5,286 bases of DNA, taken from IMG/VR virus record IMGVR_UViG_2675903606_000003, positions 1-5,286 of that record; one strand, given 5' to 3'. Below the pieces are notes generated by a model, which did no database searches, was not told the origin of the DNA, and saw only the letters and a list, made by a program, of their open reading frames with translations. Position numbers and translations under genes: made by a program. Source of the DNA: a virus. Lineage: Duplodnaviria; Heunggongvirae; Uroviricota; Caudoviricetes. Shown piece by piece: positions 2,136 to 5,286 of this stretch (position 1 is its first letter; every line of letters begins with the position of its first letter).

Positions 2136-2906
2136 ATGGAAACTGTATTTGACGCACTGAAAGCAATGGGAAAAGCCACATCGGTAGAACTGGCCGCGCG
2201 ACTTGATATCAGTCGTGAAGAGGTTCTCAACGAGCTGTGGGAACTCAAAAGAAATGGCGTCGTTGATAAAACTGGTCACACCTGGTTTCTGGCTGGCGAA
2301 GGTGAATCCCGGGTAACCGAAGAGCGGCCAGTAAAATCTGAAGCACAGGATATGCTGACCGGGGAGGTCGAACAAAAAGTTACCGCAGACATGATGATTG
2401 AGTTTATCGGTCAGGATGGTGCTAAAACGTGTGAGGAACTGGCGGGTAAGTTCGGCGTCAGTACTCGCAAGGTTGCCTCCACGCTGGCGGTGGTAACCGC
2501 AACGGGGCAGCTGGCACGCGTTAATCAGAACGGTAAATTTCGTTACTGCATGCCGGGCGATAATTTACCAGCAGAGCCGAAAGCCGCGCTGGTAACGGAA
2601 AGTGATGGTAAGGCCTTTCCTCAGCCAGCAGGTGCTGCGTTACCAGTCCGGGAAGCCGCAACACAGGAAGAAATTAAAACAGAAACTGTGGCGGACATTG
2701 TGCAGCCGTTGCTATCGTTTACCGAAACGCAAGCAGATGAGCTGATTTTTCCGTCCCTTCGCAGGGCAAACCTGGCGCTGCGCAGGGCGAAAAGTGATGT
2801 TCAGAAGTGGGAGCGAGTCTGCGCCGCTCTGCGGGAGCTGAACAAGCACCGGGATATTGTTCGACAGATTACTGATTCTTCCCGCCATGTTGTATCGGAA
2901 AAGTGA
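2136..2906 (+). CDS. Hypothetical protein with two tandem winged-helix-like repeats
   Basis: ATG 2136 preceded by GGAGG at 2123-2127 (the track's TTG at 2118 is a less likely start); stop TGA 2904-2906. Two repeats with the same pattern: residues about 5-45 ([39 protein letters not shown]) and about 90-130 ([41 protein letters not shown]). The fold assignment is from pattern reading only. Confidence 0.7.
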
Positions 2907-2921
2907 TTGCCGGAGGCGCTT

Positions 2922-3314
2922 ATGGCAAAAGTATTTACACCAGAAGAGCGGGAAGAAGTGAAGGCGCGCATTGTGGAATTCGTGCGCCTGAGCGGACGAG
3001 AAACTTTTCGACAACTGGCAGATAAAACGGGTGTCAGTAAGACCGCTATTCGTCGTTTATCTGGTGCGCTTGCGGCCAGTGGTGATGTCTGGCTCTCTGG
3101 TTGCGGGGTATTTCCATCAGAGCAGGCGTATCGCGTATGGCGTAAGACACCGGAGAAGGCTGCTGACCCGACACTGATTCGAAAGTTACCTGACGGAGAA
3201 ATACGTCGTTACAACAGACGGCAGAACATAATTTGTCGTGAGTGCCGCCAGAGCGAAGTTATGCAGCGTGTGCTGGCGTTCTATCGGGGAAACTTTCAGG
3301 AGGTGATGGAGTGA
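2922..3314 (+). CDS. Hypothetical phage protein (130 aa)
   Basis: ATG 2922 with GGAGG at 2912-2916; stop TGA 3312-3314. The N-terminal 50 residues (VSKTAIRRL region) have an HTH-like pattern; there is a CxxC pair near the C-terminus (ICRECRQ). The track's TTG at 2907 is a less likely start. Confidence 0.65.
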   Translation: MAKVFTPEEREEVKARIVEFVRLSGRETFRQLADKTGVSKTAIRRLSGALAASGDVWLSGCGVFPSEQAYRVWRKTPEKAADPTLIRKLPDGEIRRYNRRQNIICRECRQSEVMQRVLAFYRGNFQEVME

Positions 3315-3614
3315 GGGTCAGAGTTTATATTGCCGGTCCAATGACGGGATATGAAAATTTCAACCGTGAGGCGTTTCACAAGGCGGAAGAGGAACTGAAA
3401 CGGGAAGGGCATACCGTCTTAAACCCGGCAGTACTTCCGGACGGGCTGACACAGCCGCACTACATGGATATTTGCATGGCAATGATTCGTTGTGTGGATG
3501 CGATTTACATGCTGAATGGCTGGCAGCGGTCAGCGGTCAGCGGGCGCTAAGGCAGAGCTGGCACTGGCGGAGAAACTGGGGCATGCAGTGATTTATCAGG
3601 AGGTGGCTCAATGA
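3311..3614 (+). pseudogene. DUF4406-like gene (nucleoside 2-deoxyribosyltransferase-like fold) disrupted by a +1 frameshift from a 7-bp tandem duplication
   Basis: GTG 3311 overlaps the upstream stop (GTGA) and follows AGGAGGTGA. The N-terminus RVRVYIAGPMTGYENFNREAFHKAEEELKREGHTVLNP matches my recollection of the DUF4406 signature. The frame terminates at TAA 3548-3550 right after the repeat CAGCGGT-CAGCGGT-CAGCGGG (3524-3544). The +1 frame then continues open (SAGAKAELALAEKLGHAVIYQEVAQ) to TGA 3612-3614, which overlaps the next gene's ATG 3611 (ATGA). Removing one 7-mer gives a single ORF of about 99 aa. Confidence 0.6.
3524..3544 (+). repeat. 7-bp tandem repeat (CAGCGGT x2 plus CAGCGGG) at the frameshift site
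   Basis: Read directly: cagcggt (3524-3530), cagcggt (3531-3537), cagcggg (3538-3544). Confidence 0.9.
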
Positions 3615-4072
3615 GAGAGGTTAACTATGAGGCGCTTCGTGAGGCAGCACAAAACTATCAGTCGACGCTGGCGTGGTATCAGGCTATCCCGGACAGCCCA
3701 AATGCTGAACGGGATTGTGATGCGGCTCTTGCTGCGTTTAAGCGTCACATCCGTCATCGGGAAGCGGATATTATCGCTGATTTGCTGGATGGACTGGAAG
3801 AAGCAAAATCACAACTCAAAGAGCAGCGTGAGTATTACGAAGGCGTTATCTCTGATGGGAGCAAGCGTATTGCTGAACTGGAAGCGCGGGAAGTTCAATT
3901 ACCGACTCGCTACGACCTTCGATATGGACACCCGATAAATGCAGATGAGCGACATGTCATGATACCTAAAGAAAATGGCAGTTGGCTTTACCTGATTGAC
4001 CTAGAACACGCATTACGCGTCTCTGGCATTCGCATCAAAGGAGAGGAGCATGGAAATAAAACCAGAGGATGA
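3611..4072 (+). CDS. Hypothetical phage protein (153 aa)
   Basis: ATG 3611 with AGGAGG at 3598-3603; stop TGA 4070-4072. Coiled-coil-like middle section (EEAKSQLKEQREYYEGVISDGSKRIAELEAREVQL). No family recognised. Confidence 0.7.
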   Translation: MREVNYEALREAAQNYQSTLAWYQAIPDSPNAERDCDAALAAFKRHIRHREADIIADLLDGLEEAKSQLKEQREYYEGVISDGSKRIAELEAREVQLPTRYDLRYGHPINADERHVMIPKENGSWLYLIDLEHALRVSGIRIKGEEHGNKTRG

Positions 4073-4406
4073 GTTAAGCAATATCGTTTTATTTCCGGTA
4101 AAAGAGGATGACCCTCGTAATCAGGTTAATTTTCTTTATGAGCCATCGGAAAGACCATATTGTCATCACGCCTCTGTTCGGGTTGACGAAAAAGAGCGCT
4201 AGGTCCGCTGTAAAATCTGCGGTGCGGTTGTGGAGCCGTTTGACTGGATGCTCTCTGTGGCGAAAAGAGAAACCAGACTGGCAGATGATGTAAGGCTATT
4301 GCGCCAGGAGGAACAGGAAAGGCGGAAAAATATAGAAAAGTTAATTCAGATTGAACGTAACGCGAAAGCGCGGATACGCAGGGCGACAAAATCCAGAACT
4401 GAATAA
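4050..4406 (+). pseudogene. Small zinc-ribbon-like protein gene interrupted by an in-frame amber (TAG) codon at 4200-4202
   Basis: ATG 4050 with AGGAGAGGAG 2-11 nt upstream. Translation: MEIKPEDELSNIVLFPVKEDDPRNQVNFLYEPSERPYCHHASVRVDEKER-TAG-VRCKICGAVVEPFDWMLSVAKRETRLADDVRLLRQEEQERRKNIEKLIQIERNAKARIRRATKSRTE, ending at TAA 4404-4406. The segment after TAG has no start codon with a Shine-Dalgarno, so it is unlikely to be a separate gene. Cys/His residues lie on both sides of the TAG. Confidence 0.5.
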
Positions 4407-4921: not shown

Positions 4922-5286
4922 ATGGCACTGACGAAAAAACAACGTGCAGAGCTGCGCATGAAGTTCGGCGGTCGCTGTGCTTATTGCGGCTGCGAACTTG
5001 GCGAAAAGTGGCATGCAGACCATGTAAAACCGGTCATTCGTTTTGATGGAAATATGCTTCACCAGGAACGTGACGATATATCCAACATGGTTCCGGCATG
5101 CCACCCATGCAATCTGCACAAGCATTGCAGTAGTCTGGAAGATTATCGGCGAATTATCAGTGATGGTCGTCGTGAATTCCTTGCGTCCGGGAAAGGCAAA
5201 GCGCTGGTTCGTATGGGATTGGTTGAAATGAAATCTGACCCAGTTGTGTTCTGGTTTGAAAAATATCAAGAAGGGGCTACGGCATG
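4922..5286 (+). CDS. HNH endonuclease (3' partial, continues beyond the window)
   Basis: ATG 4922 with AAGGA at 4909-4913. HNH signature: CAYCGC...WHADHVKP...N...CHPCNLHKH (CxxC, H-x-D-H, conserved Asn, CxxCN..K). No stop codon before base 5286. Confidence 0.8.
   Translation, partial: MALTKKQRAELRMKFGGRCAYCGCELGEKWHADHVKPVIRFDGNMLHQERDDISNMVPACHPCNLHKHCSSLEDYRRIISDGRREFLASGKGKALVRMGLVEMKSDPVVFWFEKYQEGATA

Follow-up and report, generated by a model that had tools for sequence, protein, structure and literature searches.

A DUF4406 gene in a lambdoid prophage of E. coli has very probably been inactivated by a genuine 7-bp tandem duplication, leaving an ordinary frameshift pseudogene; we place the probability of this reading at about 0.9. 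The window analysed is a stretch of 5,286 bp corresponding to the early region of the prophage, with all genes on the + strand. Near the 3' end of the DUF4406 frame it carries three copies of a 7-mer, one more than the form of the gene that is found in complete genomes.

Gene order and the repeat array

The features of the window relevant to this analysis are the following.

297-1361, + strand, replisome organiser
1368-2114, + strand, DnaC/IstB-like loader
to 2906, + strand, DUF1627 gene
2907-3314, + strand, DUF977 gene, the intact upstream neighbour (PF06163, profile positions 1-134 of 134; PHROG 142)
3298-3314, + strand, AGGAGG at 3298-3303, then the GTGA overlap 3311-3314 of the DUF977 stop and the DUF4406 start; the same boundaries are annotated in strain AR_0013
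3311-3550, + strand, truncated DUF4406 ORF of 79 codons and a stop; gene calls of 79 aa on four public contigs correspond to it
3524-3544, + strand, 7-bp tandem array, CAGCGGT twice plus CAGCGGG; by alignment, one unit more than in the intact allele, which is the lesion
3546-3614, + strand, displaced coding remnant of the DUF4406 C-terminus, 22 codons plus stop, out of frame
3599-3614, + strand, AGGAGG at 3599-3604, then the ATGA overlap 3611-3614, at which the Ead/Ea22-like gene starts and the intact DUF4406 frame stops
3611-4072, + strand, Ead/Ea22-like gene of 153 aa, the downstream neighbour (PF13935, 9.5e-12)
3' of the Ead/Ea22-like gene, + strand, small ORFs and an HNH gene cut at 5286

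The three 7-mers (CAGCGGT at 3524-3530, CAGCGGT at 3531-3537 and CAGCGGG at 3538-3544) lie where a preliminary description of this DNA had placed them, as confirmed by reading the sequence and by Tandem Repeats Finder, which reports a period of 7 over 3524-3543 with 2.9 copies and 100% matches. With up to two mismatches allowed, the 20-mer of the array occurs once in the window, and in none of 200 dinucleotide shuffles. The array is located inside the ORF, where each unit added or removed alters the reading frame.

In the ORF list the gene starts at an upstream GTG (3242); intact homologues use GTG 3311, which has an AGGAGG 7 nt upstream. Read from GTG 3311, the ORF gives MRVRVYIAGPMTG...NGWQRSAVSGR and ends at a stop codon at 3548-3550, with residues 1-75 native and the last four (VSGR) out of frame. 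The frame spanning 3546-3614 reads AKAELALAEKLGHAVIYQEVAQ* and terminates in the ATGA in which the next gene starts (ATG at 3611). The layout described earlier, with an ORF that ends just past the repeat and a next frame that stays open for 22 codons to the ATGA, is thereby seen directly in the sequence. Deletion of one 7-mer restores a 98-aa protein (99 codons including the stop), which agrees with the figure of 99 in the preliminary description. We found no start codon or Shine-Dalgarno sequence belonging to the 3546-3614 frame itself when reading the sequence, and the sole in-frame start for it, ATG 3516, has no Shine-Dalgarno sequence upstream.

A promoter and terminator scan of positions 2800-4300 returned nothing, including no terminator-like site in the gap, a result that is consistent with one operon and with a lack of dedicated signals for any small gene at 3546. 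Rfam found no RNA family in the whole window, and the minus-strand ORFs across the region, of 24-49 aa, had no support.

The intact two-unit allele

When window positions 3250-3700 were compared with complete E. coli genomes, the best matches were identical at 444 of 451 positions and the sole difference was a 7-bp gap. A 144-mer around the site with one 7-mer removed gives 100% matches in complete E. coli genomes, where 495 records reach 99% or more. At the intact locus a single 98-aa CDS is annotated as 'DUF4406 domain-containing protein' (WP_001266130.1); it begins in a GTGA overlap with the DUF977 stop and ends in an ATGA overlap with the Ead/Ea22-like start. The finding of the two-unit sequence at 100% identity in complete genomes as one CDS upholds the proposal that the two pieces were once a single ORF. 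The shorter form is also present in the phage records Rac-SA53 and vB_EcoS-689R5, and the intact protein is encoded on at least 1000 contigs. Homologues in Enterobacteriaceae and Vibrio are likewise single ORFs of about 95-101 aa. Homologues ending at the equivalent of 3550 and followed by a separate small gene, the pattern that the preliminary description had set against its own reading, were looked for and did not turn up. We take the two-unit state to be the intact, ancestral one.

Membership of the DUF4406 family, as proposed earlier, also holds for the restored protein, which scores 129.7 bits against Pfam DUF4406 (PF14359; gathering threshold 22 bits) and spans profile positions 2-91 of 91. 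It is a full-length member of PF14359/PHROG 355 that carries the invariant residues of the family. The window allele, in contrast, encodes only profile positions 2-73 of 91 (106.4 bits), followed by four wrong residues, and the conserved C-terminal S-x-G-A-x-A-E...K segment is not contained in its ORF. On these comparisons the locus in the window classifies as a pseudogene of the DUF4406 family rather than as an intact member.

Predicted consequence for the protein

The C-terminal motif that the preliminary description had pointed to for this family proved to be genuine: residues S74, G76, A77, A79, E80 and K86 do not vary across 34 homologues with identities down to 58%. An AlphaFold2 model of the restored protein (pLDDT 91.7) places a strand at 64-67, a helix at 75-87 and a strand at 90-93. 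The frameshift after residue 75 removes G76, A77, A79, E80 and K86 together with helix 75-87 and strand 90-93. Because these invariant residues and both structural elements are missing, the 79-aa product is very probably, indeed almost certainly, non-functional, judging from conservation and the predicted structure.

The predicted model has the Rossmann-like fold of nucleoside 2-deoxyribosyltransferases (NDT). Foldseek matched it to nucleoside 2-deoxyribosyltransferases, to DNPH1 (Rcl) and to the CMP/hmCMP N-glycosidases MilB and BcmB, with TMq values of 0.67-0.79; the top PDB matches (2a0k, 8pqr, 6qai, 4ohr and 9da6) have TMq values of 0.67-0.78 at a probability of 1.00. The likeness lies in the fold, whereas the DUF4406 protein is shorter than these enzymes, at 98 aa against 130-160 aa, and shares 16-25% identity with them. 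PHROG 355, annotated as 'nucleoside 2-deoxyribosyltransferase', is matched at 3e-48. The NDT superfamily has its catalytic Glu within an S-x-G-x-x-x-E motif where a helix begins, and the DUF4406 protein shows such a motif at the beginning of the equivalent helix, following strand 4. We presume from this motif pattern that E80 occupies the position of the superfamily's catalytic Glu, an assignment that remains putative. An hhalign comparison of the family profile with a DNPH1 sequence, aimed at placing the catalytic Glu, produced no alignment that could be used. Neither the protein nor a 34-sequence profile found a meaningful match when searched by sequence against the PDB, and NCBIfam has no model for the DUF4406 protein. 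In the literature on DUF4406/PF14359, on LygF/Rac-SA53 and on the assembly accessions we found no reported activity and no functional or strain information.

Distribution of expanded alleles

Four contigs, each from its own assembly, code for precisely the 79-aa product and represent two DNA haplotypes. The carriers are as follows.

CYAZ01000115.1, identical to the window, from the E. coli draft assembly GCA_001284505.1
AIAU01000247.1, from GCA_000446445.2, also in IMG/VR
a Logan contig from SRR21142969
a Logan contig from SRR19765218

The window, AIAU01000247.1 and the SRR21142969 contig belong to a single haplotype and differ at 0-1 positions over 2.4-3.8 kb. Since the same haplotype recurs in three assemblies, the three-unit allele is stably inherited or has spread. 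Its presence in four assemblies marks it as genuine rather than an artefact. Between the SRR19765218 contig and the window there are 12 differences in 1222 positions, among them synonymous changes at 3319 and 3587 that flank the repeat. Over a 623-bp stretch, this contig matches strain NMBU-W12E19 and 11 other complete genomes, among the matches listed, at 616 of 623 positions, the gap being the only difference. Each of the two +7 haplotypes is thus otherwise identical to a common intact allele, and the two +7 alleles are identical to each other between 3319 and 3587. A third haplotype, known from a single Logan contig (ERR9598548, product P0042), has CAGCGGT three times plus CAGCAGG. In strain 602354, the intact relative closest to it, a single CAGCGGT precedes CAGCAGG, so the contig allele is +14 bp.

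These three are the only expansion alleles seen in large collections, where gains of one and two units were found and losses were not. The three-unit state occurs in none of 5,426 complete E. coli genomes, as a 91-mer across the array reached a best identity of 84/91 in all 615 matching records; the one-unit state is also absent from these genomes, and the array has two units at every one of about 1000 places in complete genomes. The comparison of two- and three-copy states in relatives called for in the preliminary description separates complete genomes, which have two units, from the four contigs with three. An exact 40-mer of the three-unit state matched nothing in species-representative genomes and only the AIAU contig in IMG/VR, where a 28-mer for the four-unit state had no matches. 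A looser 21-mer gave 19 matches each in genome and metagenome contigs, which we set aside as chance hits: the genomes were unrelated and mostly GC-rich, and contained no DUF4406 by tblastn. From a collection of 15 billion proteins, the 1-, 4-, 5- and 6-unit products of the window haplotype were absent, as were the predicted three-unit products of 10 other haplotypes.

Because the +7 change is found on a second haplotype and a +14 change on a third, the repeat appears to be a recurrent but rare slippage hot spot that acts at low frequency. Two slippage events offer the simplest reading of +7 on two backgrounds. It is unlikely, though deserving of some weight, that the site is not a hot spot and that a short recombination patch carried a single +7 event over to the second haplotype. 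The identity of the two +7 haplotypes from the SNP at 3319 to that at 3587 would fit such a transfer, and lambdoid prophages often recombine; however, a gene-conversion patch of no more than 268 bp would be needed, and the +14 expansion on a clearly different haplotype argues that the site expands on its own.

Origin of the lesion and alternative explanations

Slipped-strand mispairing in a short repeat would account for the lesion. The intact allele has a chance 13-base direct repeat, CAGCGGT-CAGCGG, encoding Q-R-S-A-G, and mispairing during replication could have added one unit. The extra unit shifts the frame after residue 75 and brings in a stop four codons later, leaving a 79-aa product that lacks its tail residues, helix 75-87 and strand 90-93, and so would not be expected to function. 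On the three-unit allele, ribosomes stop 60 nt before the ATGA at 3611-3614 that the intact allele uses, and translation of the Ead/Ea22-like gene would lose its stop-start coupling. As this gene retains its own AGGAGG (3599-3604, 6 nt before the ATG) despite the lost coupling, we would expect little polarity on it.

A comparable case is the CTGG-repeat frameshift hot spot in lacI of E. coli, reportedly described by Farabaugh, Miller et al. in 1978. Like the DUF4406 repeat, it is a short tandem repeat within a gene at which units are gained or lost by slipped-strand events, giving recurrent identical frameshifts, and in both cases these would be ordinary mutations and not a regulated switch. 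The DUF4406 site differs from the lacI site in its unit of 7 bp, in a wild type with about 1.9 copies, and in that only gains have been seen.

The preliminary description had offered three alternatives, a decayed gene, a reversible on/off switch at the repeat and an assembly error, of which the decayed gene is the best fit. A switch would require frequent gain and loss of units by the array, so that the DUF4406 enzyme and the coupling to the Ead/Ea22-like gene are turned on and off. The location of the repeat inside the ORF, where each unit step shifts the frame, would suit this, as would the expansions on at least two or three haplotypes, one of them to a four-unit array. In this respect the array resembles the contingency loci of Neisseria, Haemophilus and Campylobacter, which also have an in-ORF repeat whose copy number sets the frame. 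Those loci, however, have long tracts and many copy-number states among close relatives, whereas the DUF4406 array has just 2-3 units and the site is in the two-unit state in essentially every genome examined. The uniformity of the roughly 1000 places in complete genomes, and the missing 1-, 4-, 5- and 6-unit products and three-unit products of other haplotypes, leave a switch unsupported by population data, and unrelated lesions in the same gene (below) point to relaxed selection and not to regulated switching. We therefore consider a reversible switch very improbable, and its more specific form, a low-copy contingency repeat that switches a nucleoside-deoxyribosyltransferase-like enzyme and modulates Ead/Ea22-like coupling, a shade more so. 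If that form were true, subpopulations of lysogens would differ in nucleotide-metabolism or phage-exclusion phenotypes.

An error of sequencing or assembly might be suspected from the fact that the window is an entire short contig of a draft assembly and that the three-unit state is in no complete genome. Against this, the identical state is present in four assemblies, which include two independent Logan assemblies of other sequencing runs and a different haplotype. Assemblers do not invent an extra unit here because the 21-base array is shorter than reads and usual assembly k-mers. An error is in effect excluded, with only a residual chance. Still less credible is a reading of the locus as two genuine genes, or as a site of programmed ribosomal frameshifting that still yields full-length protein. 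The second frame does stay open for 22 codons and ends in a conserved ATGA overlap, but intact homologues are all single ORFs, a two-ORF layout is conserved in no relative, the 3546 frame is without a start codon (ATG 3516 being without a Shine-Dalgarno sequence), and reading the sequence from 3524 to 3550 revealed no slippery heptamer. The DUF4406 locus thus has neither the conserved two-frame layout nor the slippery site that mark programmed frameshifting. A pseudogene produced by a +7-bp duplication remains the reading that we prefer.

Other lesions in the same gene

Several close homologues of the DUF4406 gene are damaged in different ways. Three, from other E. coli assemblies, are independent frameshift alleles: one has a frameshift upstream of the repeat (P0099), another a 1-base frameshift downstream of it, after AEL (P0035), and a third an internal double frameshift (P0037). 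In two more, from other strains, DUF4406 homology gives way to unrelated DNA, either right after CAGCGG (P0049/L008; GCA_042183615.1, ABUWOU010000088.1, 3213-3225) or at or next to the repeat (P0050). The CAGCGG repeat may therefore also act as a junction at which deletions or mosaics form. These unrelated lesions suggest that selection on DUF4406 has relaxed in resident prophages and, taken together with the repeat hot spot, suggest that DUF4406 is dispensable to the lysogen.

The pseudogene has little import beyond annotation. It reflects ordinary gene decay and no new system. The 79-aa 'phage protein' CTT81741.1 and the remnant at 3546-3614 belong in a single annotation, that of a frameshifted DUF4406 pseudogene. 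The locus is of modest value as a documented natural example of a prophage gene in which a two-unit 7-bp repeat is probably a hot spot for recurrent duplication, and the three-unit allele could be used to mark the lineage of its carrier strains.

Further observations on the prophage

The DUF977 product matches PHROG 142, 'Ren-like exclusion protein', at 1.4e-43, and has weak helix-turn-helix-like Pfam matches. Inside this intact gene, at 3126-3144, there is a 7-bp near-tandem repeat of GCGTATC (2.7 copies, 91% matches) that could be a slippage site. Past the 3' end of the window and just downstream of the HNH gene, on the opposite strand, a ParE/ParD toxin-antitoxin pair is seen at 4378-4940 in L003 and at 2978-3540 in L005, which represent the same prophage. 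When the whole window was compared with complete E. coli genomes, the best covered 77% of it at 97.4% identity; since none covers at least 80% in one place, this mosaic of prophage modules is unrepresented among them. Finally, the replisome-organiser gene contains five GTCACG-containing repeats at 690-740, with 10-11 bp spacing, and directly after them, at 738-784, an A/T-rich 12-bp repeat (ACAGATAAAGAT, 3.9 copies) that encodes (DKDT)n. The layout of 690-784 resembles that of a lambdoid origin, in which iterons and an AT-rich tract lie inside an O-like gene.
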